Of a DNA stretch of 43,136 bases, positions 26,803 to 41,476 are shown one piece after another. Position numbers and translations under genes: made by a program. The stretch spans positions 1 to 43,136 of the forward strand of contig JAUWQP010000002.1 in assembly GCA_030611015.1 (NCBI GenBank). Direction: 5' to 3'. Numbering within the stretch: position 1 is the stretch's first letter; every line of letters begins with the position of its first letter. This stretch comes from Chloroflexota bacterium. GTDB lineage: Bacteria; Chloroflexota; Dehalococcoidia; GIF9; AB-539-J10. Under the pieces are notes generated by a model. It saw only the letters and a program-made list of their open reading frames with translations, ran no database searches and had not been told where the DNA came from.

Positions 26803-26824
26803 GCGTATAACGCCAATTACACGC
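26803..26824. repeat. family-A palindrome copy 1 (GCGTATAA-cgccaa-TTACACGC)
   Basis: Read directly. Its TTA (26817-26819) is the stop of 26817..27035. The SD of 25999..26790 lies immediately downstream on the minus strand. Confidence 0.8.
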
Positions 26825-27035
26825 CCCCACTTTCCCCCAGCATCTTCACCAGCCGTATCTCATGGGCTGATTTCAGCTTCTCCAGCTCCTCGAGCGTGGA
26901 CTCAGCCACCTTGATAGATATATTGTCTGCAGTCCCCAGGACTTCATTCTTGGCCATTATTATCCGGGGTCCGAGATCCACCGACATATTGGTCACCTTA
27001 TCAACTGGACCTATAATCCCGTTACTCATCTTCAC
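26817..27035 (-). CDS. hypothetical small protein (72 aa)
   Basis: ATGA-coupled to the upstream gene. Ends in GV-stop inside the palindrome. Confidence 0.5.
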   Translation of the reverse strand: MKMSNGIIGPVDKVTNMSVDLGPRIIMAKNEVLGTADNISIKVAESTLEELEKLKSAHEIRLVKMLGESGGV

Positions 27036-27472
27036 CCTCCTTCTCTTTCACCTACCAGCTTATCCCACCGGTCAGGCTCTATATAGACAAAGGGCAATCC
27101 CCAGTTCTTCTGGGCATATTGCTGTAAGTCCCCTGGGTCTAACTTTCGCTCCTCTCCACCAGCCTCCTTATAAAGTCGTGCCAACCCTTCCTCAGTGTAG
27201 TCCAAAATTACAGCTCCCTTTTCACCAAGCCCGGTGACTCTCACTATCCCCTCGGAGATTGCCCAGGGAACACCAAAAGGAATCTCCTTGACCTCGGTAA
27301 CCACTGCCGGCGCCGCTGGAATCGGTATCTTGATAGTTATCGCTGGCAGAGGGTTATCGGGAATCTCTAAATCCACCCGAAAGACATACTCTAGGGGGCT
27401 TGCCGACGAGCTCTTTCTAATTTTGCACTCCCCAGTCTGAGAATTAACAATTAGGTATACTATCCGTTTCAC
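27032..27472 (-). CDS. hypothetical protein (146 aa)
   Basis: Tight packing with its neighbours. No motif recognised. Confidence 0.55.
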   Translation of the reverse strand: MKRIVYLIVNSQTGECKIRKSSSASPLEYVFRVDLEIPDNPLPAITIKIPIPAAPAVVTEVKEIPFGVPWAISEGIVRVTGLGEKGAVILDYTEEGLARLYKEAGGEERKLDPGDLQQYAQKNWGLPFVYIEPDRWDKLVGEREGG

Positions 27473-27473
27473 T

Positions 27474-27926
27474 TTAGTCCTCCTTCTCTCCAGGCCCGAG
27501 CAAAAAGCCCTTCCCTGACATTACTTCAAACATGGTTTTCCCCTCTCCAATAAGCACATAACCCAAGAATATCTCCTCCATCTTCACCATTTCCGTCTCG
27601 AGGAGTGCCATCTGAGCTGATACCCAATGGAATATATTTCGCCAGGCTACTCGGTAAGCATGGTCATCCCTAGCATACCCAGCTGGTATCTCCCGGTCAG
27701 CTACCTGCCTCTTTAACACTCTCAGGGTAGATGCAGCATCAATAGGTAACCGGATAGGCAGCTTTTTCCCGTCAGGCATCGGGACCTCAAAGGAGAGCGC
27801 CTTGATCCTGCCATCGTCGCCATATTCCATCATTACCGCCCTGGCTCCATGCTCAACGAGCTTAGCCTGTATCTGTGATATTGTCCTGGAGACAGGAACC
27901 TTAGTCGAATAATCGAGCAAACCCAT
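27474..27926 (-). CDS. hypothetical phage-type protein (150 aa)
   Basis: SD GGAGGAAG. No family could be named from memory. Confidence 0.55.
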   Translation of the reverse strand: MGLLDYSTKVPVSRTISQIQAKLVEHGARAVMMEYGDDGRIKALSFEVPMPDGKKLPIRLPIDAASTLRVLKRQVADREIPAGYARDDHAYRVAWRNIFHWVSAQMALLETEMVKMEEIFLGYVLIGEGKTMFEVMSGKGFLLGPGEKED

Positions 27927-27929
27927 AAC

Positions 27930-28391
27930 TTACTTCCTCCTTCGCTTCCGTTTTTTGTCTCGTTCCCGCCTACAAGCTCTGCAATAACGCATGCCCCTAT
28001 AATAGATAGTGTTGAATAAGTCAAACGGATGCCCATGAATACAATGCGTCTGCCGAGCATGGCGCGCCGCAGTTGTTTCTCCTCTAAGTATGTGGACCTG
28101 CCTTGTTACAGGTTCTTGATGGTCCGGTCGGACGCACCAGCGGTTCCTGCAAAGATGATCCAACTCCTTGCCATCTGGTATAGGCCCGATAACCAGCTCA
28201 TAGAGAAGCCGGTGGACAAGAAACTTCCCACCTTTCCGACCGTCCACACCCAAATAGGCGTAGCCATCCTTTGAGAGGATATCTGTCCATTCCCAACAGT
28301 CATCCTCGCCCGGGCCTTTCACCACCTTGCTCCATAGGCGATTAAGGTCTTTCTCAGTCAGAACAGGACTCATCTTACTCAAAAGTGGCAT
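27930..28391 (-). CDS. HNH homing endonuclease
   Basis: CWEW...DGYAY...VHRLLYE...LDHLCRNRWCVRPDHQ is the classic HNH_3 signature. Confidence 0.8.
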   Translation of the reverse strand: MPLLSKMSPVLTEKDLNRLWSKVVKGPGEDDCWEWTDILSKDGYAYLGVDGRKGGKFLVHRLLYELVIGPIPDGKELDHLCRNRWCVRPDHQEPVTRQVHILRGETTAARHARQTHCIHGHPFDLFNTIYYRGMRYCRACRRERDKKRKRRRK

Positions 28392-28393
28392 AG

Positions 28394-28873
28394 CTACCCC
28401 CTTTCCTCCGGGCGCTGATACGGCAATCCCAGTGCCTTATATATTGATTCCTCAGTGTCGCCGGCGATCCTCTCCCCATTCTCATTAAAGAGGCCTTCAC
28501 CCGAAGCAGCCAAGTGCCAGCCTTTCTTCTTGGCCAAGCTACATAGGCGAATATTCGACTCTTTACTCCCAGTCCTAATGAGGAGCAGTGTTGCCCAAGT
28601 CCCAGGTGAAGCGAAATACAAGTCAACTTGGGCGCCGTTGTAATCGAACCGCTTCAGCTTCTCACCACTCAGCTTGGGCTGGAAGGGACGGGCCAGAGCT
28701 AGCACCTCGCTCTCCAGGTTCCAGGGATCAGAGGGGATAAGGACGATATCAATATCTCCAATAGAAGCCTTTTGCCTCCGAATAGAGCCGGCCACCTCAA
28801 TTTTCTGGCAGTAAGGTTTAAGCCTAGCAACAACCTCATTTGCTATTTCTACTGCTTGTTCCAGTCGCATCAT
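28394..28873 (-). CDS. minimal family-X DNA polymerase / Pol-beta-like nucleotidyltransferase (159 aa, palm + thumb only)
   Basis: GSIRRQKASIGDIDIVLI (GS.RRGK...GD.D motif), a third acidic site at VDLYF, then LLIRTGSKESNIRL and EESIYKALGLPYQRPEER (PolX thumb, ...PE.R end). Confidence 0.75.
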   Translation of the reverse strand: MMRLEQAVEIANEVVARLKPYCQKIEVAGSIRRQKASIGDIDIVLIPSDPWNLESEVLALARPFQPKLSGEKLKRFDYNGAQVDLYFASPGTWATLLLIRTGSKESNIRLCSLAKKKGWHLAASGEGLFNENGERIAGDTEESIYKALGLPYQRPEERG

Positions 28874-29484
28874 ATTAGCCTCCGTTGTTCCTCTGAAAAT
28901 CTTTGCTGTAAGCCAGTTACCGGGATACCCCGCTCATTCAGAACCTTCATCTTTTGCCAATAAGCCAAATCCTCCTCTGGTATCTGGGTTTTTAAATGCC
29001 CCAGGAATCTACCATGCTCATCATGCAAAGCTGTACCTGGAATCAGCCGCCTATCGTGCTTATTTTCATAAAATTCCAGTAAAAGCTCAGCTTGCTCTCT
29101 TTTCAGCACTAAGTGTGGAAGACAATTCTTGAGGATAACTAATATAATGGGCCAAGCTACAGCCTGCCACCTATAAATCACTTTCCTTCTTCCTCCCCTC
29201 GTTGTTCTCACTATAGAGCTGTGAGCAATCCTTGTATTGAGATAGTCGACCAACCTATATTGGGTATTGCTTACTAAAATATAAGGGTTCAGAGACTTTG
29301 TATTATCTCTCTTATCACTGACGAGGCTTAAGCCGATTGTTCCTTCAGAATCTATAACCCCAGCAACATAAGCCCATGTAGTATCCTCAACGAGAGCTTG
29401 AGTCAGTTCGGCTTCAATAAGTCGTTCCTTGTGAGCCTCATGCGGATTTTGGGTGGCTATTTTCCGTGCTATTTCCAGTTTCAA
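28870..29484 (-). CDS. free-standing single-motif LAGLIDADG homing endonuclease
   Basis: WAYVAGVIDSEGTIGL motif. ATGA overlaps on both sides. Confidence 0.7.
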   Translation of the reverse strand: MKLEIARKIATQNPHEAHKERLIEAELTQALVEDTTWAYVAGVIDSEGTIGLSLVSDKRDNTKSLNPYILVSNTQYRLVDYLNTRIAHSSIVRTTRGGRRKVIYRWQAVAWPIILVILKNCLPHLVLKREQAELLLEFYENKHDRRLIPGTALHDEHGRFLGHLKTQIPEEDLAYWQKMKVLNERGIPVTGLQQRFSEEQRRLI

Positions 29485-29666
29485 TAATTTACCTCCTTGT
29501 CACTTTCAATTTCCGCCCTTCTTAGATTCTCGTTCCCGATCTCCCTCTCATGCAGAGGGCAAACATGCAACCACACCTTCCTGCCATTAGGATAGGTCTT
29601 GAACAGCCCATACTTGGCCTCGTTTTGACAGCCCTTCACCTCACATTGACCTAATTTCTTCATCAC
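29481..29666 (-). CDS. small Cys/His zinc-binding protein (61 aa)
   Basis: CEVKGC...HVCPLH motif. SD AGGAGGAG. Confidence 0.5.
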   Translation of the reverse strand: MMKKLGQCEVKGCQNEAKYGLFKTYPNGRKVWLHVCPLHEREIGNENLRRAEIESDKEVNY

Positions 29667-29680
29667 TTCTCCTCCTTTCT

Positions 29681-29702
29681 GCGTGTAACAGCCCTTATAC
29701 GC
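29681..29702. repeat. family-A palindrome copy 2 (GCGTGTAA-cagccc-TTATACGC)
   Basis: Its TTA at 29695-29697 is the stop of 29695..29898. The SD of 29481..29666 is adjacent. Confidence 0.8.
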
Positions 29703-29898
29703 TTAGCTCTAGAAACGACTTCATCGCCATCCTCAGGTCATCAGCCTCTCGTTTAGGGATAAGATAGGCTTCGATGGTTTCCTCGCCACCCTCTGGTAGC
29801 TCATGGCACCAATCAGTCAGTTCATGAGATTCAATAAACTCAGCGACGAAGCCGATAAGCTTTCTTATCAAAGCTGCTTTCTCTTTCGAGTACTCCAA
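29695..29898 (-). CDS. hypothetical small acidic protein (67 aa)
   Basis: TTG start after GAAGGAG. Bracketed by two family-A palindromes. Confidence 0.45.
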   Translation of the reverse strand: MEYSKEKAALIRKLIGFVAEFIESHELTDWCHELPEGGEETIEAYLIPKREADDLRMAMKSFLELSV

Positions 29899-29911
29899 CT
29901 CAATCTCCTTC

Positions 29912-29933
29912 GCGTGTAACGTAGGTTATACGC
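29912..29933. repeat. family-A palindrome copy 3 (GCGTGTAA-cgtagg-TTATACGC)
   Basis: Its TTA at 29926-29928 is the stop of 29926..30465. Confidence 0.8.
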
Positions 29934-30465
29934 CAGTGTGCCCCGGCACAAATTCAGGCTGCTTTACTCTTGGTACATTTGGGCCGGGCAGCTTCATCAG
30001 CTCCTGCGCCCAGTATGACACGCTGCTGGGACAGACCTGGCACCAGGACCCCTCAGGATTGCTCAGGCAGCTCTTGGTCTTTTTACCATTCTCAATGTAA
30101 AGGCAATCATGATAGCCCTTCGCTTTTAGCTCCAGGCAAAGGTGGTGAAGCCTCTCCTGAGCCTCGTTCCAACGGTCCCACTGGTATTCTTTCTCCTCCC
30201 CCTCTTCCATCTCCTGAATTTGGAACCTGACCTTGGAGAGTTTATCATTGCCCTTTATCACCCTATCCCTCAGGGCAAGGATTTCAAGAGCATAACTAGG
30301 TGGTTCACTAGGTGGTTCATTAGCTAGTACATTAGGCCCTTCTTCACCAGGGTTCGACCCCGGGTTAGGGTTGGGATGACATTTTCCACAAAACCAGTGG
30401 CCATCCGGAGTCAGCCACCAGTTGTCTGAGCCACAGGCAAAGCAGGCTTTGGTCGGTCTTTCCAT
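29926..30465 (-). CDS. zinc-ribbon protein (179 aa)
   Basis: N-terminal CFACGS...CGKCH motif. Ends in GV-stop inside the palindrome. Confidence 0.55.
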   Translation of the reverse strand: MERPTKACFACGSDNWWLTPDGHWFCGKCHPNPNPGSNPGEEGPNVLANEPPSEPPSYALEILALRDRVIKGNDKLSKVRFQIQEMEEGEEKEYQWDRWNEAQERLHHLCLELKAKGYHDCLYIENGKKTKSCLSNPEGSWCQVCPSSVSYWAQELMKLPGPNVPRVKQPEFVPGHTGV

Positions 30466-30471
30466 CTTATC

Positions 30472-30738
30472 TCACCCCTTAAATTTATCTTCAGCCTCAA
30501 CCAGATAATAAGTGAGCAGGTTGATTGCTCTGGCTACTTTGCGTTTGACTAACAAGTGAACCTTCTTCCTATCTGCTTCCATAGTTTCTCTGGTTTCCCC
30601 CGGGTATAGCTTCTCTCTCCCATAAAGCAACGAATGATGCTTTTGGCATAGGTAAACACCCACCTCATAAATTTGGGGTATTGGGTGATGCCAGTCTATT
30701 TGTCCCTCGGCCGAACCGCAAAATTCACATTTATGCAT
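30472..30738 (-). CDS. small HNH-like Cys/His protein (88 aa)
   Basis: CEFCGS...WHHPIP...CQKHH pattern. Confidence 0.5.
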   Translation of the reverse strand: MHKCEFCGSAEGQIDWHHPIPQIYEVGVYLCQKHHSLLYGREKLYPGETRETMEADRKKVHLLVKRKVARAINLLTYYLVEAEDKFKG

Positions 30739-30747
30739 TTTTAGCCC

Positions 30748-31007
30748 GTAGTATAGATTTCCCTCAAAATCGCCCCGGTAGTATAGCGTAGTATAGTTTT
30801 CCTAGGCACGACTTAGCTTTGTAGTATAGATTTCGCTCTCTCTTTAATTATACTATTCCCTCTCTCTCTTTTTTTTACCTCTTTTATTCAAATTTCAAAA
30901 AACTCTCCTTAGGAACATAAAAAACTATACTACCTAGCTGGCTTGTAGCTAAGAAAACTATACTACGGAGGCCTAAAACTATACTACGGAGGCAAAAACT
31001 ATACTAC
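30748..31007. repeat. origin-like iteron array: 4x GTAGTATAG(A/T)TTT, AT/pyrimidine-rich core, 4x AAAACTATACTAC in inverted orientation
   Basis: Copies at 30748, 30778, 30788 and 30821 face copies at 30925, 30958, 30979 and 30999. The core at 30832-30920 is CT/AT-rich. The array ends 5 nt from the primase-helicase stop. Confidence 0.7.
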
Positions 31008-31011
31008 CGTT

Positions 31012-33312
31012 TTAGATCTCCATGTCGATTTCCTTTTCTCCTTGCTCCTTCAATTGGATTCCTGTCCAGCCGGTTGTTTGTGCTCCCCTGGGGCCTCTCC
31101 TCTGGAATGTGGCATGTACATTCTTGGCATTCTTCAATGCTCGACCAAAGCTCTCTTTCCCAATCCGAGGGATGTTTTGTTTATCACAGTAATCAATGAA
31201 AGCGTCATAAAGCTCGTCTTTTGATATCCATGCCAAGTCACTCGTTTCACATACATCTTCAACAAAGGCGTAGAGGGGGTCAGAGGCCCTTTGATGCCAT
31301 TCAGCAATTTCATCCGGGCTAGCTTCGTAGCTATATCCTTGCTTCTTAAGTAGTCTTTCTAACCCCTGCAGGGCTATATTCAATAAGCCACTCATCTCAC
31401 TTTTCTGGGTTAATTTCTGGATTAAACGCTTATCCGCCTTGCCTCCCTCAAATTTGTTTGGGAAGTTGATAAAAATCCACCTTCTCCAGAAAGCAAGGCT
31501 ATCCTCATCTACCTTGGGTGGTTTATTGGTGGAATAGATAAGGCGGGCTGTATTATTAAAGCCAAAACGGTCCTTGAATTTCTTTTCAGCGCCTATGGTG
31601 TCACCCCCGGTCAGCATCTTGAATAGTCCCACATGTGGCATCTTAGTTGAGGGGATATCAGCGTATATGTTAGCCAGTTTGCCAAAAAGGTCAGCTACAG
31701 CGAATCGTTGGCTCTCAATAGTTTGCAGCGCTATATTGCTGCAGTTTTCCATGCCCAGGAAGTGTTTTAATAACTCTAGAAGAGAACTCTTTCCATTAGC
31801 CCCATCTCCCAGAAAGAGGAAAGCGCGTTGTACTGTATAGTCAGGAATCAGGCAGTAGCCGAAGAGTTCCTCTATTATCGGGATATCCTTTTCTCTCAGG
31901 ACCTCGGTGAAGAATTGTTGAACCCGGGGACAATCAACCTGGGGGTCATAGGTCACTGGAATTCTGATGGTAGATAGAAGTTCTGGGGTGTGAGAGCTAA
32001 GTTCACTGGTACGGATGTCGTAAAGTCCATTCTGTAAATTCAGGACCCATTTCTCCTGGTTAAACTTCCTGCGGGCGACATAGGTGCTACGTTTGATATG
32101 CCCAATGACTTCATTGACATTATGGATAGTCATAAACTTTTTGGGTACCCGCTTTTCACATTCTTCTTTAATGGTTGCTTCCCCTAGTTGTATATAGATA
32201 CCATCTTCATAGATGAGGCATTCCTCATTATCTCTGAATGTTTTAAAGGAATACTCAGCGAGCAAATCATTAACTAACTTCGGTAGATCCAGGTGCCAGC
32301 CGGTTTTATCATGATAGAGGTAAATGCCGTATTCCTCTTTGGTTGCCAGTCTGAAAGCTAAACCAGCGGGAGACTTGAGGCCCAATTTCTTTGCCAGGCA
32401 ATCCTTTGAACAAGTAAAGCCTATATTGTCGCAGAGATGGGGGCTTTTCCCCTGCTTTCTTTGCTCGTGGGCTTCCTCTATTTTTTGGTTTGTTTCTGCC
32501 TCTGTGTACTGGGGGTATGGCTTAGATAATTCATGGGCTGTTTCTTCCCCCACCTGGCCGAAAACGGCCAGGTTATGAACCATCGCCCACCAGTATGGCT
32601 CGGTTAAAGTGGCGGCATTGTCGCGGCAATACTGAACGAAAGCACAATTCTCTAAGAGCTTCTTTACTGCTATTTCATTGAATTTGGCTGACTGCTTTCC
32701 TTCTATGTGTTCCTCGGCTGGGGCAGGTTTCTTGGGGGCTTCTTGGGCTAGCCGTGCTTTCAGACCAAGCTCAGCCACGCACTGCTCTATGAAAGCGGGC
32801 AGATTCTTGGGCCTGGCTATAGACTCAACGCCGATAGCTTCATAGAGAACACCCGAGGGGTGTAATGAAGGGGGGACAGCGATATAGTTGCCATCTGCAC
32901 GAATCTCAAGCCATGACTTATTATCCCCCCTGGCAATGATTTGGCTCGGGATTAGAGTGTTTGACCGTAAATATACATGCACCCCTCTGGGAGTTTTGAC
33001 AACGAAGGTAGAGGCTAAGAGCTTATCCCACAGCTTTTGGCCGAAGAACTCACTGGCGCCATCTGGGGCATTGAAACAAAGAGCGACAAGCCCATTGGAA
33101 GCACCCCCGCAGATTATGGCGACATTAGTTGGTTTACCTTCCTGAAACCATTCGGCCAGTTCAGTAAAGGTAGGAGCTCTACTTTGGGATGGTTCCCATT
33201 TAACTGTGCCTTTTTTTTGTCCCCACAGTAAAGGGAAGTATCGCAGCCGCTCTTTTTCATAGAATTGAAGAGCCTTCTGTAGTGCTTCCCAATTGAATTT
33301 AGGAATAGCCAT
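31012..33312 (-). CDS. bifunctional primase-polymerase (AEP) / D5-P4-type SF3 helicase
   Basis: The N-terminus KTPRGVHVYL and EIRADGNYIAVPPSLHPSG fits prim-pol. It has a central Cys-containing PriCT-like region. Walker A FLGDGANGKSS and the following region are typical of the P4/D5 primase C-terminal helicase. Confidence 0.85.
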   Translation of the reverse strand: MAIPKFNWEALQKALQFYEKERLRYFPLLWGQKKGTVKWEPSQSRAPTFTELAEWFQEGKPTNVAIICGGASNGLVALCFNAPDGASEFFGQKLWDKLLASTFVVKTPRGVHVYLRSNTLIPSQIIARGDNKSWLEIRADGNYIAVPPSLHPSGVLYEAIGVESIARPKNLPAFIEQCVAELGLKARLAQEAPKKPAPAEEHIEGKQSAKFNEIAVKKLLENCAFVQYCRDNAATLTEPYWWAMVHNLAVFGQVGEETAHELSKPYPQYTEAETNQKIEEAHEQRKQGKSPHLCDNIGFTCSKDCLAKKLGLKSPAGLAFRLATKEEYGIYLYHDKTGWHLDLPKLVNDLLAEYSFKTFRDNEECLIYEDGIYIQLGEATIKEECEKRVPKKFMTIHNVNEVIGHIKRSTYVARRKFNQEKWVLNLQNGLYDIRTSELSSHTPELLSTIRIPVTYDPQVDCPRVQQFFTEVLREKDIPIIEELFGYCLIPDYTVQRAFLFLGDGANGKSSLLELLKHFLGMENCSNIALQTIESQRFAVADLFGKLANIYADIPSTKMPHVGLFKMLTGGDTIGAEKKFKDRFGFNNTARLIYSTNKPPKVDEDSLAFWRRWIFINFPNKFEGGKADKRLIQKLTQKSEMSGLLNIALQGLERLLKKQGYSYEASPDEIAEWHQRASDPLYAFVEDVCETSDLAWISKDELYDAFIDYCDKQNIPRIGKESFGRALKNAKNVHATFQRRGPRGAQTTGWTGIQLKEQGEKEIDMEI

Positions 33313-33321
33313 CTAAAGCCC

Positions 33322-34203: not shown

Positions 34204-34236
34204 TGTAGAATTTCCTCCCTTTTATTTTGTTATTGT

Positions 34237-34671: not shown

Positions 34672-34695
34672 CTTTTACCTCCTTTCTTAGATTAT

Positions 34696-34932: not shown

Positions 34933-34960
34933 GGTTACCTCCTTTAATTCTCAACCGGTA

Positions 34961-35375: not shown

Positions 35376-35390
35376 GTCAAACTCCTCTCT

Positions 35391-35573: not shown

Positions 35574-35587
35574 TTCGGTCTCCTTTC

Positions 35588-35603
35588 GTCTCACCTGGTA
35601 GTA
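35588..35603. repeat. 16-bp direct repeat GTCTCACCTGGTAGTA, copy 2
   Basis: Identical to 35401-35416. Here it is non-coding, between the stop at 35615 and the SD of 35391..35573. Confidence 0.7.
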
Positions 35604-35614
35604 ATGTTTCAGGC

Positions 35615-35941
35615 TTAATCTCGGTACTTCAATTGCTCACCATCATAAAGCAGGTCCAGATTGAAGTCCTTGAGTGAGAATCCGGGGTTGCTCTTGAGCT
35701 TCTCAAAGACCTGGGCGCTGACAAAATTAACCAGGCTGCTCGGCATATTTTTATTCCAGATTAAAGGCGGGTCTTCCATTGCGCCAGCTAACTTGCAGAT
35801 GGTCTTGGTTATGTTCAAGCCCCGTATCAGGATGTTTGCATCGTATTCAGATACTCCCAGAAATTTGGCAAACTCCTCGAGAGGAACTTCTACTTGCTCC
35901 CCCTCCTCATTCAACTTATAAGCTCGGTAATCAGGCATCAT
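35615..35941 (-). CDS. hypothetical protein (108 aa)
   Basis: Open ORF in the operon. No motif recognised. Confidence 0.5.
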   Translation of the reverse strand: MMPDYRAYKLNEEGEQVEVPLEEFAKFLGVSEYDANILIRGLNITKTICKLAGAMEDPPLIWNKNMPSSLVNFVSAQVFEKLKSNPGFSLKDFNLDLLYDGEQLKYRD

Positions 35942-35985
35942 AAGCTCCTATTCTTCGTAGGATGTTGAGCTATACTCTAAACCTT

Positions 35986-36183
35986 CTAGCCAACTATGAT
36001 TTCAACCGGCACTCCAAGTAAGGCTAAATCACCAGTGTCCAACTCTGCAGAACACTCGGGGCAGCGGATGGCTCGGGTTGCTTTATCATCTTTCTGCCAG
36101 CTCTCTCCGTCCCATGTCATCTCCTCTTTTACGACCTCGAGATAATCCATCTCGCAGCCGCAGTAAGGACAAATATTGCTCAT
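35986..36183 (-). CDS. zinc-ribbon protein (65 aa)
   Basis: CPYCGC...CPEC motif. SD GGAGGAAC. Confidence 0.5.
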   Translation of the reverse strand: MSNICPYCGCEMDYLEVVKEEMTWDGESWQKDDKATRAIRCPECSAELDTGDLALLGVPVEIIVG

Positions 36184-36219
36184 TACTCCTGTTCCTCCTT
36201 TCTATTCTCAAAGGAATGT

Positions 36220-36408
36220 TTAGCGTTCTGCCTCGGAACGCTGCTTCTTCCATTCAATTTCATGCCAATGCTTCCTGGCTTCTGGGTCAGGTTCGGCCAG
36301 TTCAAAATTCTGGCAAACCATAATTTCTGCTAGTATAAAGCCACCACCTTGTTTACCGACTGCATCAAAAACCTCTCTTTTCTGTGTTTTAATGAACATT
36401 CTATACAT
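36220..36408 (-). CDS. hypothetical small protein (62 aa) ending RSEAER
   Basis: SD GAAGGAGGAAG. Its C-terminus is encoded by a family-B palindrome. Confidence 0.45.
   Translation of the reverse strand: MYRMFIKTQKREVFDAVGKQGGGFILAEIMVCQNFELAEPDPEARKHWHEIEWKKQRSEAER
36222..36242. repeat. family-B palindrome copy 1 (AGCGTTC-tgcctcg-GAACGCT)
   Basis: Read directly. It is followed toward the next gene by the mini-palindrome ATTCTCAAAGGAAT (36204-36217) and then the SD. Confidence 0.8.
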
Positions 36409-36422
36409 TGCTTCCTCCTTCT

Positions 36423-36442
36423 AGCGTTCTCGATAAGAACGC
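36423..36442. repeat. family-B palindrome copy 2 (AGCGTTCT-cgata-AGAACGC)
   Basis: It lies between the stop of 36445..37011 and the SD of 36220..36408. The 18 nt at 36425-36442 are identical to 40119-40136. Confidence 0.8.
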
Positions 36443-36444
36443 CT

Positions 36445-37011
36445 CTATATCCAGGTGAATTGAATACGATAAAAAGTGTAATTCTCAATAGGCTGAAAGC
36501 GATAGCCGGCTCTTTTCAGTGCCAGTGCCAGTTCGCTAATACTGTCAAAGCCACCCCGCCGGGCATCGTCTATGGTGAGGCCATCCAAGATAACCACGTC
36601 CATAGAGACGAGCTCTACAGTGCCTAATACTATGCCATCCAGGACGACTTCCAGCCGGTCGCCGGCACTAACTCGCCCATTGATGATGGCATTGGTGATA
36701 CTGCCGCTCTCAGCTCGCAGCGTTTGGGTAACCTGGCGTTGCTCTAGCTTGTAGGCGGCAGCAGGACCAAGTACCCGGGTGGTAAAACGAATTTCTTCAT
36801 TAGGCATTAGGCTACCTCCAACGGTAGCTTTGTCTGCTCGATGTAGGCTGTGCTGTTCGAGGATCCCCTTGACTTCTTCTTCGGTGGTCTGGTGCAGTGC
36901 CTCTCGGTTGACAGCTCCGGCACTTCCATGGTAAAAGCCCTGACAAACACACTTGCATCGAGTGCCATGCGCCTCATGGCATCTACTCGAGCAGGTTCTT
37001 TTTCTACCCAT
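36445..37011 (-). CDS. ASCH-domain-like protein with an N-terminal Cys/His-rich segment
   Basis: The C-terminal half (GDRLEVV..G..LGTVELVS...LTIDDARRGGF.S..EL...L...Y) resembles the ASCH/PUA-like fold. The N-terminus is CSSRCHEAHGTRCKCVC. Confidence 0.5.
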   Translation of the reverse strand: MGRKRTCSSRCHEAHGTRCKCVCQGFYHGSAGAVNREALHQTTEEEVKGILEQHSLHRADKATVGGSLMPNEEIRFTTRVLGPAAAYKLEQRQVTQTLRAESGSITNAIINGRVSAGDRLEVVLDGIVLGTVELVSMDVVILDGLTIDDARRGGFDSISELALALKRAGYRFQPIENYTFYRIQFTWI

Positions 37012-37027
37012 AATATTGTCTCCTTTC

Positions 37028-37056
37028 TAAAACCAGCACCGGGAGCACCAGTCGCC
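37028..37056. repeat. left arm of a 29-bp imperfect inverted repeat bracketing 37062..37592
   Basis: TAAAACCAGCACCGGGAGCACCAGTCGCC matches the reverse complement of 37616-37644 at 25/29 positions, with a 12-bp perfect core CGGGAGCACCAG. Confidence 0.75.
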
Positions 37057-37061
37057 TTAAT

Positions 37062-37592
37062 TTAGGGTGCAGGGACGTTTGAGAAGGCGATTTTGAAACC
37101 GGTTGAAGCTTCTCCGGCAGCGACCCCTGTCGTACAATTGATAAATTCGTCAAAGATGTAAGTTCCAGCGGCACCGAGAGGAATACTCGTCCTCCAGTTA
37201 GTCATATCTACAATTATCGTGGTGCCAACAGGAACAACTGCCTCGTCTGTGCTTGTCCTACACACGAGTTTGACCTCATACTCAGCGTATAGGGGGTCCT
37301 CATCCAGTTCCAGCCAGAGGTGCATGCCCGCGCCATCGGGGCCTAGCGCTACCGCAACATGATTTGGCCAGACTCCACTAAAACCTTGACCTCCAGCCAC
37401 TAAGTTTTGAAGCTCAATGTCGGGTGCGATAACAGTGCCATAATCCTTGGGTTCTGGAGGTTCGGTGATGGTCTGGGTGATGGTCTGAGTGATGCTAAAG
37501 TATAAAGCTGCCACAACTACTGTTCCGACAAGAACGCTGGCGATTATGCCAAGGGGTATTCCGTGCCATGTCTTTTTGAAAAGTTTCTTCAT
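37062..37592 (-). CDS. secreted or membrane-anchored protein (176 aa) with an N-terminal signal-anchor
   Basis: KKLFKKTWHGIPLGIIASVLVGTVVVAALYF is a TM/signal segment. It is followed by ITQTITQTIT and a beta-rich domain. SD AAGGAGA. Confidence 0.65.
   Translation of the reverse strand: MKKLFKKTWHGIPLGIIASVLVGTVVVAALYFSITQTITQTITEPPEPKDYGTVIAPDIELQNLVAGGQGFSGVWPNHVAVALGPDGAGMHLWLELDEDPLYAEYEVKLVCRTSTDEAVVPVGTTIIVDMTNWRTSIPLGAAGTYIFDEFINCTTGVAAGEASTGFKIAFSNVPAP
37464..37494. repeat. 12-nt tandem repeat x2.6 (GGTGATGGTCTG) encoding ITQTITQTIT
   Basis: Read directly inside 37062..37592. Confidence 0.7.
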
Positions 37593-37615
37593 ACATTGTC
37601 TCCTTTCTTATTTTT

Positions 37616-37644
37616 TGCGCCTGGTGCTCCCGCTGCCGGTTTTA
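37616..37644. repeat. right arm of the 29-bp inverted repeat
   Basis: TGCGCCTGGTGCTCCCGCTGCCGGTTTTA. It overlaps the -10 and the predicted transcription start of the promoter for 37062..37592. Confidence 0.75.
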
Positions 37645-37669
37645 TATCTGTTACCATCCCTCTTGACAA
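37641..37669 (-). promoter_or_regulatory. sigma70-like promoter TTGTCA-17-TATAAA for 37062..37592
   Basis: On the minus strand the -35 is at 37669-37664 and the -10 at 37646-37641. Confidence 0.5.
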
Positions 37670-37736
37670 TGTGGGGTAATTAGGGATAAAATCAAATAGT
37701 GATTGGGTTTTTTGTTTTTCCCTAATCACCTCCTTT

Positions 37737-37943
37737 CTAAGGGGCTGCTGTCTTTTCCACAGCAGCCTTCTCTTTATTTAGCCTCTCTATTTCGCTCTGG
37801 GGGATAAACAAAATACCGCCGAAGTTGATGTTAAGAATCGTCCCAGCATCAATCCAGCGGTAGACGGTAGTAAAGTGTACGCCGATTTGCTTTGCAGCTT
37901 GGCGCACTGTCATGAAGTCAGTAGTTTGCTTTTGTGTAACCAC
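37737..37943 (-). CDS. excisionase/MerR-type helix-turn-helix DNA-binding protein
   Basis: MTVRQAAKQIGVHFTTVYRWIDAGTI is a typical Xis-family HTH. The start is either GTG 37943 (leaderless) or ATG 37913. Confidence 0.65.
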   Translation of the reverse strand: MVTQKQTTDFMTVRQAAKQIGVHFTTVYRWIDAGTILNINFGGILFIPQSEIERLNKEKAAVEKTAAP

Positions 37944-37949
37944 GCAACT

Positions 37950-37978
37950 ATGATAGCATAGCTAATATGGTATGTCAA
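37950..37978 (-). promoter_or_regulatory. strong sigma70-like promoter TTGACA-17-TATCAT directly upstream of the HTH gene
   Basis: -35 at 37978-37973 and -10 at 37955-37950. Six nt separate the -10 from GTG 37943. Confidence 0.55.
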
Positions 37979-38167
37979 GCCCCCTGAGGACAATTTTTAA
38001 GAGGGGTTTTTTAGAGGTTTAACCTTGCTAAGTCCTCCAACCGCCTCTTTTGGCTGATTTTTACCCCCAGCAGCTTGTCACTTGAATAGGAGACGCACTA
38101 GAATTGAAATCTAGGCGTTTTGGAGGGTGGTCAATGGTTATTCTACCTTGGCTCTCACTCTTGAGTT

Positions 38168-38323
38168 TTACCGGGAGACAAAAGTCGGGAATCGCTTGCC
38201 TTGGCTCCGAGCTAAAATCTGCCCCAGTGTGAGCTGCCCCCAATTTCGGGCATAGTAATCTAATAGGCTGAATACTCTCTCGGCTTTGCCGCTGAGATGT
38301 AGAACAACTGTTCTTTTCCCCAT
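38168..38323 (-). CDS. possible 51-aa ribbon-helix-helix-like protein (MGKRTVVLHLSGKAERVFSLLDYYARNWG...)
   Basis: ATG at 38323, 8 nt after AAAGGAGG, immediately after a family-B palindrome. Preferred over the track ORF 38061..38243, which is in another frame and has no SD. Confidence 0.45.
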   Translation of the reverse strand: MGKRTVVLHLSGKAERVFSLLDYYARNWGQLTLGQILARSQGKRFPTFVSR

Positions 38324-38340
38324 TTTAATTTACCTCCTTT

Positions 38341-38363
38341 CAGCGTTCCCCCTTAGAACGCTG
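38341..38363. repeat. family-B palindrome copy 3 (CAGCGTTC-cccctta-GAACGCTG)
   Basis: 8-bp arms. The stop codon of 38353..39024 lies in the loop (38353-38355). Confidence 0.8.
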
Positions 38364-39024
38364 CAGCGACCGCCATTACCCGACCATCAATAACCCGCCG
38401 GCTCAACCCGTGACGGATATAGTAATCACCCTTATCGGTCGGCCAAGTTTTATGGGTTCGCTTTGGCCTGGTCAGTATCTCCTTCGCTTCTGGAGTAAGG
38501 TCTTTGAGGTCTATCTGCCAGCGATTCCGGAGCCGGTCATAGCGTCCCTTAATCTTGCCTACAGCCAGGGCCTGGCGGATGCGGTGGCAAGAGCAGTTAT
38601 ACTCATTGGCCAGTGCAGCTGCCGATAGATAGCCTTGGTTATGCCTGGAGGCAATCCCTTTTATCCTGAGCTGCCCTCTCACAGCTCCATAGGACCGTCC
38701 CAATTTTCGGGCTATCCGCTCTAATGTATGGTTGCCGGCATACTCGAGCAAATATGCTCTCTCTTCTTCCGTCCATGGCACATTGTGGAATGAGACTCGG
38801 GACATCGGCTCGCCCGTAGCCAGCCAGCCTCTTGACATGGCGCCAAAATACTCGAGTACCCGGGTTGCCGGTGGCCAGTCTAAATGCCCTTTCTTTACCC
38901 GACTATAAGAAGCATCAAGGCAGGGCAACGGGCCTTCTATCTCCCCGGCCGCAGCGGCCAGGCCGGCTATCACCTTTTCCTTTGTCCATAGACGCTTCCT
39001 ACCTATCCAATTTGGGAATGGCAA
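38353..39024 (-). CDS. DNA-binding protein with Myb/SANT-like and HTH-like segments (223 aa)
   Basis: WTEEERAYLLEYAGNHTLERIARKLGRSYGAVRGQ and a later YLSAAALANEYNCSCHRIRQAL. The function is inferred from motif resemblance. Confidence 0.5.
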   Translation of the reverse strand: MPFPNWIGRKRLWTKEKVIAGLAAAAGEIEGPLPCLDASYSRVKKGHLDWPPATRVLEYFGAMSRGWLATGEPMSRVSFHNVPWTEEERAYLLEYAGNHTLERIARKLGRSYGAVRGQLRIKGIASRHNQGYLSAAALANEYNCSCHRIRQALAVGKIKGRYDRLRNRWQIDLKDLTPEAKEILTRPKRTHKTWPTDKGDYYIRHGLSRRVIDGRVMAVAAAF

Positions 39025-39036
39025 TCCTTCCTCCCT

Positions 39037-39897
39037 TCATTGTTCTGCCTCGGAACGGGGCAACCATAAAGGATCGCTCATAGCAAAGAGTTTAATCCTC
39101 TCCTGTTTATAGAACTCGAAGGGTAATTGCCCCTTATCCTCCGGTGTTCTTAAATCTATCTCCCGCAAAGGCTTGAATGACCTATGTAGGTATTGGGTAT
39201 AGGCAGACGTTGTTTCACTGCCATGTCTTATTGTATCGTCAACTAGAATAGCATCTGCCCACTCATCGGAGTTAGCATAGACCTCCTGCCATTCCTTTTT
39301 GCCATGATAAGGGCAGCCTATACAGGAGCTTTTAGCGACAGACATCCCCTCATAGTTATCATGTAGCCATTTTATACAGTCATTTCTTGACATCATGCGT
39401 TCTACTAATGGGTATCGTTTCCCTAACCACTTGCTATGGGATAACGACATACGCTGAGCCTCATCAATACTAATGCCAATCCACATTTCTACTGCCCCTT
39501 CCTTTATCCTTGCTCGCCTTGATACATCAAGTAATTCACGAATCTTATGGAAGATGGGCTGTAGTTTATACCTGTCTGTGCACTGACGTTTACCCATCAA
39601 ATGTTTACCACCCTTATCCATGTAAAGAGGCATGAGATAGTAGCCCTTGTTTAACTCAGCAGCGTTCAAGCTATCATCCCTGATATTCCTCTCCTGAACG
39701 ATTATCACGGGGATGCCATGCTGTTCTGCCTCAACCTTTAACCACGCAAGATGCTTATATGTAGCCTTGCTCTCCCATCCCGTGTCGGCAAAGATAGCTA
39801 CATCAGGCTGGGGTAATTCCCCCTTGATAGCCATAAGTAGTATTGTCGTAGACTGGACACCAGCTCCTAATGATAATACTGTCAGCCTATTCACCAT
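39037..39897 (-). CDS. PAPS-reductase-family (PP-loop ATP pyrophosphatase) protein, phage type
   Basis: The N-terminus LSLGAGVQSTTILLMA...AIFADTGWE is the phage PAPS-reductase-like signature (SGG.DS-type PP-loop variant). Confidence 0.75.
   Translation of the reverse strand: MVNRLTVLSLGAGVQSTTILLMAIKGELPQPDVAIFADTGWESKATYKHLAWLKVEAEQHGIPVIIVQERNIRDDSLNAAELNKGYYLMPLYMDKGGKHLMGKRQCTDRYKLQPIFHKIRELLDVSRRARIKEGAVEMWIGISIDEAQRMSLSHSKWLGKRYPLVERMMSRNDCIKWLHDNYEGMSVAKSSCIGCPYHGKKEWQEVYANSDEWADAILVDDTIRHGSETTSAYTQYLHRSFKPLREIDLRTPEDKGQLPFEFYKQERIKLFAMSDPLWLPRSEAEQ
39040..39058. repeat. family-B palindrome copy 4 (degenerate; TTGTTC-tgcctcg-GAACGG)
   Basis: The 16 nt at 39042-39057 are identical to 36225-36240. 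It encodes the C-terminus RSEAEQ of 39037..39897. Confidence 0.65.
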
Positions 39898-39909
39898 CTG
39901 TGTTTCCCT

Positions 39910-40080
39910 TCAAGCGTTCTTGATTATTTTGTCTATGGCTTTTTGAATAGTTCTAAGCGAATGAATGTTACGACGGGTCATTCCATCTTTGTCTATCCAG
40001 CCTCCATGGTCAAGACCATCATTCCTGTTATCACCGGAAGCAGCGTCCACATAATAGATTTTGCCTTTTTCTTTACCCAT
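39910..40080 (-). CDS. 56-aa ORF resembling the N-terminal cap of beta-helix (pectate-lyase-fold) proteins
   Basis: Trimmed to the ATG at 40080 behind GGAGGAGA. KIYYVDAASGDNRNDG...LRTIQKAIDKI matches the cap motif also seen at the N-terminus of 17739..18650. The AGCGTTC half-site at 39913-39919 overlaps its 3' end. Confidence 0.45.
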   Translation of the reverse strand: MGKEKGKIYYVDAASGDNRNDGLDHGGWIDKDGMTRRNIHSLRTIQKAIDKIIKNA

Positions 40081-40117
40081 CTTGTCTCCTCCTAGTATTC
40101 TCAAAAGAATATCTCCT

Positions 40118-40137
40118 ACGTTCTCGATAAGAACGCT
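40118..40137. repeat. family-B palindrome copy 5 (ACGTTCT-cgata-AGAACGCT)
   Basis: It lies after the stop of 40141..40374. It is followed by the mini-palindrome ATTCTCAAAAGAAT (40097-40110) and the SD of 39910..40080. Confidence 0.8.
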
Positions 40138-40140
40138 GTT

Positions 40141-40374
40141 TTACTGACCAAAACTCCCTGGGTGGCGTATCTTTTCAATCTTAAGTTTTGCTAGTTTCAC
40201 TACATCTAAAAATGGATTCCTCTGATGGCAACGGTGAATGCGATTAAGGGTAACCCATATAGCAGCATGATAACCAAACATGATGAATTTATACTTGCTG
40301 AGCGAATCCCATGCTGCTGTTTCTTTCGCACTCAATTCATCGAGAACCTTTCTATCTAGCTGCATTGTCTTCAT
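40141..40374 (-). CDS. hypothetical small protein (74-77 aa)
   Basis: Bracketed by a family-A and a family-B palindrome. The start is ATG 40374 or the ATG 9 nt downstream. Confidence 0.45.
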   Translation of the reverse strand: MKTMQLDRKVLDELSAKETAAWDSLSKYKFIMFGYHAAIWVTLNRIHRCHQRNPFLDVVKLAKLKIEKIRHPGSFGQ

Positions 40375-40389
40375 CTCCTTTCCCCCTCT

Positions 40390-40411
40390 GCGTATAACAG
40401 CCGTTATACGC
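40390..40411. repeat. family-A palindrome copy 4 (GCGTATAA-cagccg-TTATACGC; perfect arms)
   Basis: Its TTA at 40404-40406 is the stop of 40404..41201. Confidence 0.8.
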
Positions 40412-41201
40412 TTTTGTTCTCCCCCAGCTTCTCTGCTATTTGGTGGAGCTTTTCATCTAGCCTATAAGCTCCACGCCCCTCAAATAAGTTGAGCGCAATG
40501 TCTACTAAGCCAGCTGCCTCTTCGGCGTATTTCCTCTTACCGAGTAAGAGCTCGACTTCTTTTCTCAACCAATACACGGCATCGCTAACATGTAGGAACT
40601 CCTGCCCAGCCAGCGCATTGACCTCCTCGATCAGCTTGTGGGCTCGCTCTATGTATTCTCTGCTTTCCACAATGTCTCTCGATAGCTTTAATCCAAATTG
40701 ATAAGTAGCTTCCCTCAACCCCCTGTATTCTTGGAACCTCTCGGCTTCCAGCCGGCGGTATTCCTTGAAATGGTTCTGGTAGCCCTTCATCAGTAAGGCC
40801 ATCATCAGATCTCGGGACAATTCAAAATCACGCCGCGGGGCGGTCTTAACAGACCTCCATCCGCTAGGGCCACATGTTATAAGACCGCAGCCTTCAGGAA
40901 CTTCACTCTTGCTTATCACACCGGCTGGCGCCGCGAAATAAAGCTGGTTGCAGTGTTCCATATATTTCAGGTATTTCCCCTGGGTTACATCCTGGAGGAA
41001 ATCGCTCCGGCTTCTCTTCACTTCATAAATCCTGACAGCCTGGTTAGAGTAGCTCTTGAAGATGGCCATAACATCCACGATCCCAGGATGGCCCCACAAC
41101 ACGGAGCCCAGGGGCTGATTCGTCCAGGTCATCCAGTTGCCACCCTGTAGGAAGCGGGCAAGACTCTCTGCTAGTTCTCGGCCTTTAGTCAACCGATTCA
41201 C
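40404..41201 (-). CDS. MmcB-like PD-(D/E)xK nuclease-fold protein with a helical C-terminal extension
   Basis: VDVMAI...RIYEVKRSRSDFLQD..GKYLKYMEHCNQLYFAAPAGVI...VPEGCGLI follows the D...E.K + Y..y.d..y.v.P pattern I recall for the MmcB/DUF1052 family. Confidence 0.55.
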   Translation of the reverse strand: MNRLTKGRELAESLARFLQGGNWMTWTNQPLGSVLWGHPGIVDVMAIFKSYSNQAVRIYEVKRSRSDFLQDVTQGKYLKYMEHCNQLYFAAPAGVISKSEVPEGCGLITCGPSGWRSVKTAPRRDFELSRDLMMALLMKGYQNHFKEYRRLEAERFQEYRGLREATYQFGLKLSRDIVESREYIERAHKLIEEVNALAGQEFLHVSDAVYWLRKEVELLLGKRKYAEEAAGLVDIALNLFEGRGAYRLDEKLHQIAEKLGENKSV

Positions 41202-41218
41202 TATATACTATCTCCTCT

Positions 41219-41240
41219 GCGTGTAATGTAGCTTATACGC
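41219..41240. repeat. family-A palindrome copy 5 (GCGTGTAA-tgtagc-TTATACGC)
   Basis: Its TTA at 41233-41235 is the stop of the 46-aa ORF 41233..41373. Confidence 0.8.
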
Positions 41241-41411: not shown

Positions 41412-41476
41412 GCCTTTTCTTACCAAGAAACTCCAGAGGATTCGAACCCCCGGCCCCGACCTGATATAATGCTGGT

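Follow-up and report, generated by a model that had tools for sequence, protein, structure and literature searches.

Two models of phage mosaicism have been put forward. One places conserved boundary sequences at the joints between exchangeable segments, and it fell from favor because such sequences were not found at most junctions; the competing model invokes random illegitimate recombination followed by selection (PMC3029335). Described systems that come near to a boundary sequence include the promoter/stem-loop elements (PeSLs) of T4-type phages, which adjoin ORFans in plastic regions and recombine with each other (PMC2839356), and the plasmid dif (pdif) modules of Acinetobacter, with XerC arms ATTGCGTATAA and ATTGCGTGTAA and 6-nt centers such as TGGCTG and TACACG (PMC12907356); the Escherichia coli dif site reads GGTGCGCATAA-TGTATA-TTATGTTAAAT (PMC3025954). 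Here we describe a 22-bp palindrome, GCGTRTAA-N6-TTAYACGC (family A), that recurs in a 43,136-nt stretch of DNA from a Chloroflexota bacterium (GenBank assembly GCA_030611015.1, contig JAUWQP010000002.1, positions 1 to 43,136; this whole stretch is referred to below as the window). In the sequence comparisons reported here, family A is a widespread, phage-specific, dyad-symmetric motif that marks cassette boundaries and breakpoints of homology, bears the signature of recognition by a symmetric dimer, has centers in a fixed order, and has arms identical to those of the XerC type. On this evidence, family A marks where exchangeable units of uncultured sediment phages (accessory genes, tRNA genes, and promoter units) are joined.

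Results

Five palindromes join genes of one early operon

An exact pattern scan of the window returned exactly five copies of GCGTRTAA-N6-TTAYACGC, with 0.00 expected from dinucleotide-preserving shuffles, and these had the coordinates, 8-nt arms, and 6-nt spacer that an earlier reading of the DNA (the sequence-only reading) had given them (Table 1). No further copy was found at up to 3 mismatches in the whole 43,136 bases (0.31 expected); the plus-strand late block, which that reading had described as free of the palindrome, and the host-like flanks of the window had none even at this level. All five copies lie within a single minus-strand operon that runs from the early promoter at positions 41411 to 41383 down to ~25.4 kb. 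On the minus (mRNA) strand, their context is the same in every case: the upstream open reading frame (ORF) ends as xGC-GTR-TAA within the first arm, six bases follow, and then comes TTAYACGC. A GGAG or GGAGG Shine-Dalgarno sequence (SD) stands 3 to 5 nt past the right arm in 5/5 copies, and the start codon is next. The upstream ORFs end in G-V, S-V, G-V, S-V, and G-V, in agreement with the earlier description of five ORFs that finish in Gly/Ser-Val-stop with the next SD adjoining. Copy 5, the first joint of the operon, sits between the 46-aa first gene (41233-41373) and the gene for a 265-aa protein; the neighbors of copy 1 are a 72-aa ORF (26817-27035) and a 263-aa ORF (25999-26790). That pairs of copies bracket single genes, as the sequence-only reading had noted for two cassettes, was confirmed. 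None of the five copies has a -35 or -10 element.

Table 1. Sites, cassettes, promoter, and selected genes of the early operon in the window
Feature	Positions	Strand	Details
Family-A copy 1	26803-26824	(-)	mRNA sense GCGTGTAA-TTGGCG-TTATACGC
Family-A copy 2	29681-29702	(-)	mRNA sense GCGTATAA-GGGCTG-TTACACGC
Family-A copy 3	29912-29933	(-)	mRNA sense GCGTATAA-CCTACG-TTACACGC
Family-A copy 4	40390-40411	(-)	mRNA sense GCGTATAA-CGGCTG-TTATACGC; perfect dyad
Family-A copy 5	41219-41240	(-)	mRNA sense GCGTATAA-GCTACA-TTACACGC
Cassette, 67-aa ORFan	29695-29898	(-)	Bracketed by copies 3 and 2
Cassette, 265-aa MmcB-like / PD-(D/E)XK-type protein	40404-41201	(-)	Bracketed by copies 5 and 4; PF06319, phrog_5429
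Sigma-70-type early promoter	41383-41411	(-)	Strong, near-consensus TTGACA-17-TATAGT; drives the operon with all five joints; no palindrome
HNH gene	27930-28391	(-), operon	Pfam HNH_3
Pol-beta-like nucleotidyltransferase gene	28394-28873	(-), operon	Flanked by the HNH gene and the 204-aa ORF
204-aa ORF	28870-29484	(-), operon	One LAGLIDADG-like motif, AYVAGVIDSEGTIGL, by eye; no profile match
Primase-helicase gene	31012-33312	(-), operon	Early gene

The palindrome belongs to a phage-borne family

An SD-anchored pattern scan of JGI metagenomes identified at least 120 contigs with the motif, mostly from marine-sediment and deep-subsurface samples. The family counts given below (copies, spacer types, neighbors, and recombinases) are drawn chiefly from contigs among the matches listed; because the seed pattern required an SD, the association with an SD outside the window is inflated. 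The listed contigs hold 194 exact palindromes in 425 kb, and all related loci together (598 kb) hold 201 exact, 28 one-mismatch, and 15 two-mismatch copies of family A, versus no exact, no one-mismatch, and four two-mismatch copies in five pooled shuffles of the same 598 kb. Across 185,579 species genomes, the SD-anchored pattern occurred at only 4 loci, all on short contigs of metagenome-assembled genomes (MAGs), and one of these contigs belongs to an Anaerolineales MAG. By the sequence-only reading, a similar density of the 22-mer in unrelated host DNA would have counted against it; the SD-anchored pattern is almost absent from these genomes. A dispersed, REP-like host repeat fits neither this result nor the lack of copies in the host-like flanks of the window, and by its distribution, family A is phage borne and not a host repeat.

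A plain-palindrome scan of IMG/VR gave 59 single matches, about the number estimated for chance, and one true relative, L036 (L numbers denote contigs and loci that have to be told apart). L036 carries a 22-mer identical to copy 3 in the same context, followed by AGAGGAGG-ATG, and has a second, degenerate copy 238 nt downstream; its two spacers are identical to those of window copies 3 and 5. The window proteins had no match in the IMG/VR loci, L036 included (tblastn, E < 1e-4), and a protein-pattern search of IMG/VR for primase relatives returned nothing. Separately, ~15 AT-rich IMG/VR prophage contigs (L003, L011, L014, L015, L017, L022, L024, L028, L029, L039, L042, L043, L045, L048, and L058) have one common site, GCGTGTAA-TTTATA-TTACACGC, with the same arms and with TATAAT directly after it, an operator-like position. 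Their flanks look unrelated to those of the window family.

The embedded stop codon, which the sequence-only reading had treated as built into the element, is present in all five window copies and is not an invariant of the family. It serves as the stop of 63 of 141 upstream ORFs (~45%, with 33% expected by frame), and 35 more ORFs stop 2 to 5 nt before the palindrome; such a distribution is what tight packing around an intergenic site would produce. Family-A copies are also found after tRNA genes (L081 and L110) and before terminators. Phage tRNA genes (Gly and Trp) occur as units of the arrays in L081 (1177-1253), L110 (275-347), and L158 (1019-1093 and 1330-1405), with family-A palindromes or a lone left arm at their borders.

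A subclass of copies is associated with promoters. Fifteen copies have an exact TTGACA that ends 8 nt from the left arm, on its 5' side, and two more have one at 7 nt (0.13 expected per offset); the -10 element consists of spacer bases 2 to 6 and the T that opens the right arm, at a spacing of 17 nt. In spacers of the junction type, A occupies spacer base 3 (the key -10 adenine) in 1%. The existence of this sigma-70 promoter subclass around the palindrome in other contigs supports the likeness to the T4-type promoter/stem-loop cassettes that the sequence-only reading had pointed out. Promoter-type copies cluster in regions of L105, L078, L154, L148, and L084 that apparently encode tail-fiber-like repeat proteins (translations read), and the genes downstream of those copies are small and have in common a DPLxxLxRDxxRIRKA-like motif.

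Two other palindromes occur at comparable places. Family B, CGTTC-N7-GAACG, lies at early-gene junctions of the window (36224-36240, 36425-36441, 38344-38360, and 40119-40135), just 5' of the SD (..cTAGAAGGAGG); elsewhere it occurs in L098 (three copies), in L141, and in L145, where it stands in tandem, directly downstream of family-A copies. Family C, (AAG)YATTCT-N4-6-AGAATR ahead of the SD, has a single window copy (40097-40110) and is the dominant linker in L191, at about five junctions between positions 6471 and 8735; L191 has no family-A or family-B copies.

Homology between related phages breaks at the sites

The primase of the window has many metagenomic relatives, one of them a named Dehalococcoidia. 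In L060 to L063 (80% primase identity), the operon is syntenic, and the window copies lie in or edge segments that those phages lack; their own copies precede a small gene that closes a convergent, probably late, block, and the L063 copy is of the promoter type by reading of its flank. No family-A copy was found in L064 and L066 (74% primase identity) or in 10 kb of early genes of L191 (84% primase identity). At copy 1, homology with L133 covers the upstream gene and the palindrome and is lost 7 nt farther on, and the copy 1 segment is absent from L060. At copy 3, the first base of the palindrome lies no more than 3 nt from the point where homology with L060 to L063 ceases. At copy 5, L145 has the same upstream 46-aa gene (220 nt, 90% DNA identity) and the same arms and then diverges downstream, with CCTACG as its spacer instead of GCTACA. 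The 67-aa gene enclosed by copies 3 and 2 is present in L159 together with an upstream palindrome and a downstream site that is one base shorter, between unrelated flanks, and in L158, where the gene ends in a left arm only and a tRNA gene is next.

The same pattern emerged from counts over the family. Both flanks were shared in 14 of 276 informative site-contig pairs; at other gene junctions on one strand the count was 50 of 363 (Fisher p = 2.8e-4), and both-flank sharing at intragenic control points was 26 to 42%. The spacer differed in 27 of the 40 pairs that share one flank and was identical in 6/6 pairs that share both; the 27 differing pairs indicate that crossovers have fallen on both sides of the center, within or next to the 8-bp arms. 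The sequence-only reading had suggested a recombination boundary, and homology breakpoints at or inside the palindrome support that suggestion.

The centers fall into recurrent types with a fixed order

Among 161 copies, the commonest spacers were GCTACA (24 copies), CGGCTG (12), CCTACG (11), TGGGTA (10), GAGAGG (9), TATTGG (9), TTGGCG (8), GGGCTG (8), and TAGGAG (8), besides others. Along contigs, these types keep a fixed order, TAGGAG>GCTACA>CGGCTG>CCTACG. GCTACA preceded CGGCTG in 8 contigs versus 0.96 expected, and TAGGAG preceded GCTACA in 7 versus 0.66; the reverse orders were seen in 0, and the observed order counts were reached by 0/5000 shuffles. The order in the window (GCTACA, CGGCTG, CCTACG, GGGCTG, and TTGGCG) fits that of the family. 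The description of the spacer as nonconserved in the sequence-only reading thus does not stand, since all five window spacers are among the nine commonest recurrent types and are kept in fixed order.

The genes that lie between the centers behave differently. Genes between the same two centers (160 to 1154 nt) were related in 0 of 28 pairs for GCTACA>CGGCTG and in 0 of 21 pairs for TAGGAG>GCTACA, and the 265-aa gene of the window is one of 8 nonhomologous occupants of the GCTACA>CGGCTG slot. The sequence-only reading had proposed looking for differing gene content between copies, and all slot occupants proved mutually unrelated. Ordered centers with unrelated genes between them imply, on these comparisons, that the linkers have outlived everything around them.

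These results bear on the possibility that the sites are operators, or "stoperators," of a dimeric regulator of phage or host origin that occludes RNA polymerase or blocks elongation or read-through, the latter in the manner of the mycobacteriophage L5 repressor, with recombination as a by-product of conservation. We regard this as a serious, if somewhat unlikely, alternative. It gives the most natural account of the promoter-embedded copies, in 15 to 17 of which the dyad covers a consensus sigma-70 promoter from about -22 to -1, the classic operator geometry, and it predicts the same DNA-dimer signature that is described in the next section. Small helix-turn-helix (HTH) proteins are encoded nearby in the window (37737-37943, HTH_17, and 38353-39024), and a putative LuxR-type HTH gene lies directly upstream of the L036 copy (translation read by eye). 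Dispersed intergenic copies are a feature also of stoperators (PMC9283540) and of the 17-bp palindromes of cluster O phages (PMC4351075). However, the early promoter of the window has no copy, and all five window copies are without a promoter. The motif is also patchy among close relatives, being absent from 10 kb of early genes of L191 and from L064 and L066 and located elsewhere in L060 to L063, and no regulator family co-occurs with it across contigs, none having tracked the motif when the 1,089 ORFs of the motif contigs were clustered. Moreover, a regulator leaves unexplained both the conserved, ordered spacer types amid gene turnover and the crossovers between sites that have only 8-bp arms in common.

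Arm variation points to duplex DNA

Across the family, the arms are essentially invariant and the center is variable. Within the arms, only mirror positions 5 and 17 commonly vary, each by a transition, and in 161 nonredundant oriented copies, the combinations at these positions were A/T in 71, A/C in 47, G/T in 33, and G/C in 10. The two positions vary independently (r2 = 0.024), and the unpaired A.C combination (29%) is the second commonest. In copies with one or two mismatches, 35 changes break a pair on one side, 11 give G.U, and only 2 are compensated. The covariation score was 0.048, versus 0.049 in shuffles, with 294 of 500 shuffles as high; pair 5 was AU in 76, GU in 23, GC in 7, and unpaired in 35; and a covariance-model search revealed no hidden population of compensated relatives. 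The edges of the spacer are constrained as well. In 48 spacer types, the first base was A in 1 and the last base was T in 0, an exclusion that is mirror symmetric and base specific but not pairing specific, as C/G and T/A are common there. RNA from promoter-type copies would start past the left arm, yet both arms are perfectly kept in these copies. No U-tract follows the stem, as one would in an intrinsic terminator; the mRNA strand continues as A(A/G)AGGAG.

In the window itself, the mRNA-sense hairpin has an A.C mismatch at stem position 5 in the copies at 29681, 29912, and 41219, confirming what the sequence-only reading had reported for three copies, and a G.U pair in the copy at 26803; the copy at 40390 is perfect. 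Predicted sense-strand energies range from -4.0 to -10.7 kcal/mol, with in-context pair probabilities of 0.5 to 1.0. Taken together, the evidence points to duplex-DNA sites read by a symmetric dimer and not to an RNA stem, and we infer that a protein binds the palindrome. The sequence-only reading had favored duplex DNA and a dimeric protein over a plain RNA stem, a preference that the lack of covariation and the independence of positions 5 and 17 support; the translational operator or RNA-processing hairpin that it had kept as an alternative is weakened.

Two explanations that involve a hairpin were weighed in light of these data. In the first, the palindrome is a PeSL-like linker with no dedicated reader, an RNA or single-stranded DNA hairpin that attenuates, insulates, or stabilizes and is kept uniform through general or short-homology recombination of co-infecting phages. 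The T4-type architecture of stop codon, sigma-70 promoter with a stem-loop at -35/-10, and SD has experimental precedent, and PeSLs, as mentioned above, are found by ORFans and recombine with one another (PMC2839356). The family-A hairpins are foldable at the energies given, and three unrelated palindrome families occupy the same place 5' of the SD. Nevertheless, we consider this explanation improbable. The stem shows neither covariation nor compensation, the mid-stem A.C in 29% of copies shows no deficit relative to independence, and a canonical terminator would have a U-tract, which this stem lacks. Bases are excluded at the spacer edges in a symmetric, base-specific way, and transcripts of promoter-type copies would be without the left arm. 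In addition, ordinary homologous recombination needs more identity than arms of 8 bp provide, yet two thirds of the one-flank pairs have different spacers.

The second explanation, a translational device in which the hairpin couples or gates the next cistron or is the target of a phage RNA-binding protein or RNase, appears very unlikely. Its appeal lies in the position of the copies: in SD-oriented copies, the SD is 0 to 4 nt past the right arm (orientation having been assigned by that SD), the start codon mostly comes 12 to 17 nt beyond that arm, the base just past the arm is A in 94% of copies, and the embedded stop is used more often than its frame predicts (45% versus 33%). The SD association outside the window is, however, inflated by the seed pattern, and copies also occur after tRNA genes, before terminators, and inside promoters. 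An invariant stem with a variable loop is the reverse of typical recognition of an RNA hairpin by a protein, there is no covariation, and no Rfam family reached the gathering score in the window.

Three further candidates were tried and rejected. An NtcA/CRP-type site (TGTA-N8-TACA) does not fit, since 6 of the 10 window half-sites have A at position 5 and read TATAA, and the GTA of such a site is then broken. For an ECF-sigma -10 element (CGTATA), a suitably spaced -35 element is lacking, and integron attC core sites differ in size and core sequences.

A candidate reader of the Xer type

The arms of the palindrome resemble a known recombinase site. The pdif XerC arms, ATTGCGTATAA and ATTGCGTGTAA, have GCGTATAA and GCGTGTAA as their inner 8 nt, the R variant included, and the family-A arm matches E. 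coli GGTGCGCATAA at 7/8 positions. All exact copies have two inverted 8-bp arms, with a partly specified 9th position, around a 6-bp center. Among the matches listed, 12 of 120 motif contigs encode Xer-like recombinases, in some cases inside the arrays, and one ~210-aa recombinase gene ends 5 nt before a GCTACA site. When the 1,089 ORFs from motif contigs were clustered, an AAA+ protein (by reading of the sequence) and Xer-like integrases ranked highest, and neither family is in the window. The ~210-aa tyrosine recombinases inside arrays (L123, 1006-1638; L098, 6705-7340; and L077, 218-892) consist of a catalytic domain only; their best NCBIfam matches are XerA/XerC, below the cutoff, and the genes end at a family-A or family-B palindrome.

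We tentatively favor, at somewhat less than an even chance, an Xer-like tyrosine recombinase as the reader and the palindrome as an Xer-like site; the identity of the recombinase and strand exchange at the site are both things that we infer. Each site would be composed of two inverted half-sites, GCGTRTAA with a ninth position that is "not A," around the 6-bp center, and a symmetric protein dimer would read both arms. The recombinase, which either the host or some of the phages would encode, would exchange strands at the edges of the center, so that co-infecting genomes, or a genome and a circularized cassette, could swap either side of the site. Asymmetric center types in a fixed order would keep the exchanged genes in register. 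The unit of exchange would be a right arm, an SD, an ORF, and the next left arm, whose TAA would often double as the stop codon in a tight operon; in promoter-type copies of other contigs, the bound protein would also occlude the promoter. A more specific proposal is that of programmed cassette exchange, in which ordered heterospecific sites with the same arms and different 6-bp crossover centers, served by an Xer-type enzyme from the host or some phages, provide addressable slots behind the early promoter through which genes, tRNAs, and promoter units pass between unrelated phages. This proposal we hold to be doubtful, though worth stating.

Several observations weigh against an Xer-type reader. 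The window encodes no integrase and no tyrosine or serine recombinase by searches of Pfam, PHROGs, and NCBIfam, by tblastn, or by inspection of translations. A XerD-type arm (TTATGTNAANT) is absent, the right arm TTAYACGC being the mirror of the XerC-like left arm, and we know of no two-protein Xer system that has such a C/C site as a substrate. Each arm has 8 to 9 conserved bp versus 11 in dif, and the match to the XerC arm may be a coincidence. Integrases are expected in temperate phages anyway. Families B and C, which do not resemble Xer sites, fill the same place just 5' of the SD and therefore speak for a more generic role of a dyad there. Adjacent pairs with the same spacer, the signature of simple insertion, were present in 6 contigs, about the estimate for random draws, and the left-arm variant is tied more tightly to the spacer type than is the right-arm variant, which symmetric exchange does not predict.

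A cut followed by repair would be another route to exchange at a dyad. The target of an I-CreI-type homodimer has 22 bp, of which 9 in each half are specified and the central 4 are free, and the family-A dyad fits this layout. A homodimeric homing-type endonuclease, either the 204-aa ORF of the operon (28870-29484) or a similar protein, would cut the dyad, and break-induced exchange would follow; this candidate LAGLIDADG-type ORF and an HNH gene do lie inside the same operon as the sites. Multiple cut sites in its own genome would, however, be self-destructive, such genes are not recurrent in motif-bearing contigs, and L066 has a LAGLIDADG match and no palindrome. We consider such an endonuclease scarcely credible as the reader.

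Other features of the window

Besides the genes in Table 1, the early operon holds a PAPS-reductase-like gene and many ORFans, and the genes near the joints are mostly without a family match in profile searches. Because host-like genes are found at both ends of the window (DctP at 41999-43075 and an Mrp/ApbC-like ATPase and SDR epimerase at 3.6 to 7.5 kb), the element is probably a prophage, judging from gene content. No att repeats or tRNA genes were found in the window, and the early region had no megablast match among 50,697 phage records. A tRNA 3'-end-like fragment, GGGGGTTCGAATCCTCTGG, with no intact tRNA gene, lies at about 41430-41460 (-), upstream of the early promoter. It is followed by a separate dyad, TTAGCGG-N6-CCGCTAA, between divergent promoters (41541-41560) and by a strong hairpin terminator (41865-41896) beyond which is the host-type DctP gene; the region from upstream of the early promoter to DctP is probably the prophage/host junction.

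After the primase-helicase gene, a 273-nt gap (30739-31011) contains four direct repeats of GTAGTATAGTTTT; these look like iterons, and they may serve as an origin of replication or as an array for a regulator. In the late block, a 607-aa protein (14215-16038) has a LAGLIDADG_3 match in midprotein and weak thymidylate-synthase and RNR PHROG matches and may be a structural or packaging protein with an intein. Two late-gene hairpins are conserved at homologous positions in L060 (-): the hairpin at 17718-17736 (CTAACA-taggagg-TGTTAG) has an SD within its loop, and the one at 18715-18731 (CTCTCC-ggaga-GGAGAG) stands just ahead of an SD.

Discussion

One 22-bp sequence is found at hundreds of junctions in phages that otherwise share little, and family A is an unusually clear case of the conserved boundary sequences long proposed for phage mosaicism. 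With it, the boundary-sequence model becomes directly testable by means of synthetic sites. The sites flag the genes in the slots as a rapidly exchanged accessory pool, in which antidefense or host takeover functions would be expected. If the reader is Xer-like, the gene mobility of dif modules would extend from plasmids to phage operons, and if exchange is programmed, the arrays would be a natural analogue of cassette exchange by lox variants.

Several known systems share parts of this arrangement. Integron cassettes, like the family-A units, are ORFs without promoters of their own that follow a single strong promoter, with an imperfect palindrome (attC in integrons) as the boundary of each, and in both, the stop codon is often in or next to the site. 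The attC sites measure ~57 bp or more, their cores are of 7 bp (RYYYAAC/GTTRRRY), and what is recognized is a folded single strand in which some bases are extrahelical. Unlike integrons, the window has no intI or attI.

Stoperators act in one orientation, and to our knowledge, they have not been reported as mosaic joints. Like family A, the stoperators of cluster A mycobacteriophages (L5 gp71) exist as many copies of a short site in intergenic gaps and also at a promoter (PMC9283540). They are 13-bp asymmetric sites bound by a monomer (PMC9283540), whereas family A is dyad symmetric and the main promoter of the window is without a site. The 17-bp palindrome of cluster O mycobacteriophages comes closer in form, with dispersed, near-invariant dyads that have a variable center and are mostly intergenic, and its authors predicted that a dimeric protein binds it (PMC4351075). 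The same authors found few if any of the repeats at rearrangement boundaries (PMC4351075); family-A sites, in contrast, are preferentially at breakpoints. The SAS/ESAS repeats of cluster K mycobacteriophages are SD associated, with inverted repeats upstream, and mostly intergenic (PMC3203893). The cluster O and the cluster K repeats are each confined to one phage cluster, whereas family A spans phages with different replication modules.

The likeness to T4-type PeSLs (Arbiol et al. 2010, PMC2839356; Comeau et al. 2014, PMC4122927) is more extensive. In both, a short conserved motif lies between a stop codon and an SD, copies are concentrated by small ORFans in plastic early regions, and the motif is an exchange point between otherwise unrelated sequences, with the endpoints of indels and replacements at the motif. 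In promoter-type family-A copies, as in PeSLs, the stem-loop lies between or over the sigma-70 -35 and -10 boxes. Unlike PeSLs, the five window copies do not have a promoter as part of the motif, and only the 15-copy TTGACA subclass elsewhere has one. The PeSL stem is a G/C-rich terminator, whereas that of family A is short, A/U rich, and often mismatched. The family-A arms are, moreover, one invariant 8-mer across phages without detectable protein similarity (in the stretch compared), the centers are of discrete types in conserved order, and the phages, which are temperate and sediment derived, are unrelated to the T4-type group.

Plasmid dif modules differ from family A in other respects and resemble it in the site itself. 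At pdif/Xer sites (PMC12907356; PMC3025954), as in family A, genes are bracketed by inverted arms around a 6-bp center, modules are shuffled between replicons, and centers vary by site; the pdif arms ATTGCGTATAA/ATTGCGTGTAA contain the family-A arm exactly, in the R variant too. Unlike dif and pdif, family A has two XerC-like arms with 8 to 9 conserved bp and no recombinase in the window, is located inside a phage operon, where it is fused to stop codons and SDs, and is known from sequence alone. By the comparisons made here, family A is a member of neither group, and of the systems considered, it is closest to T4-type PeSLs and plasmid dif modules.

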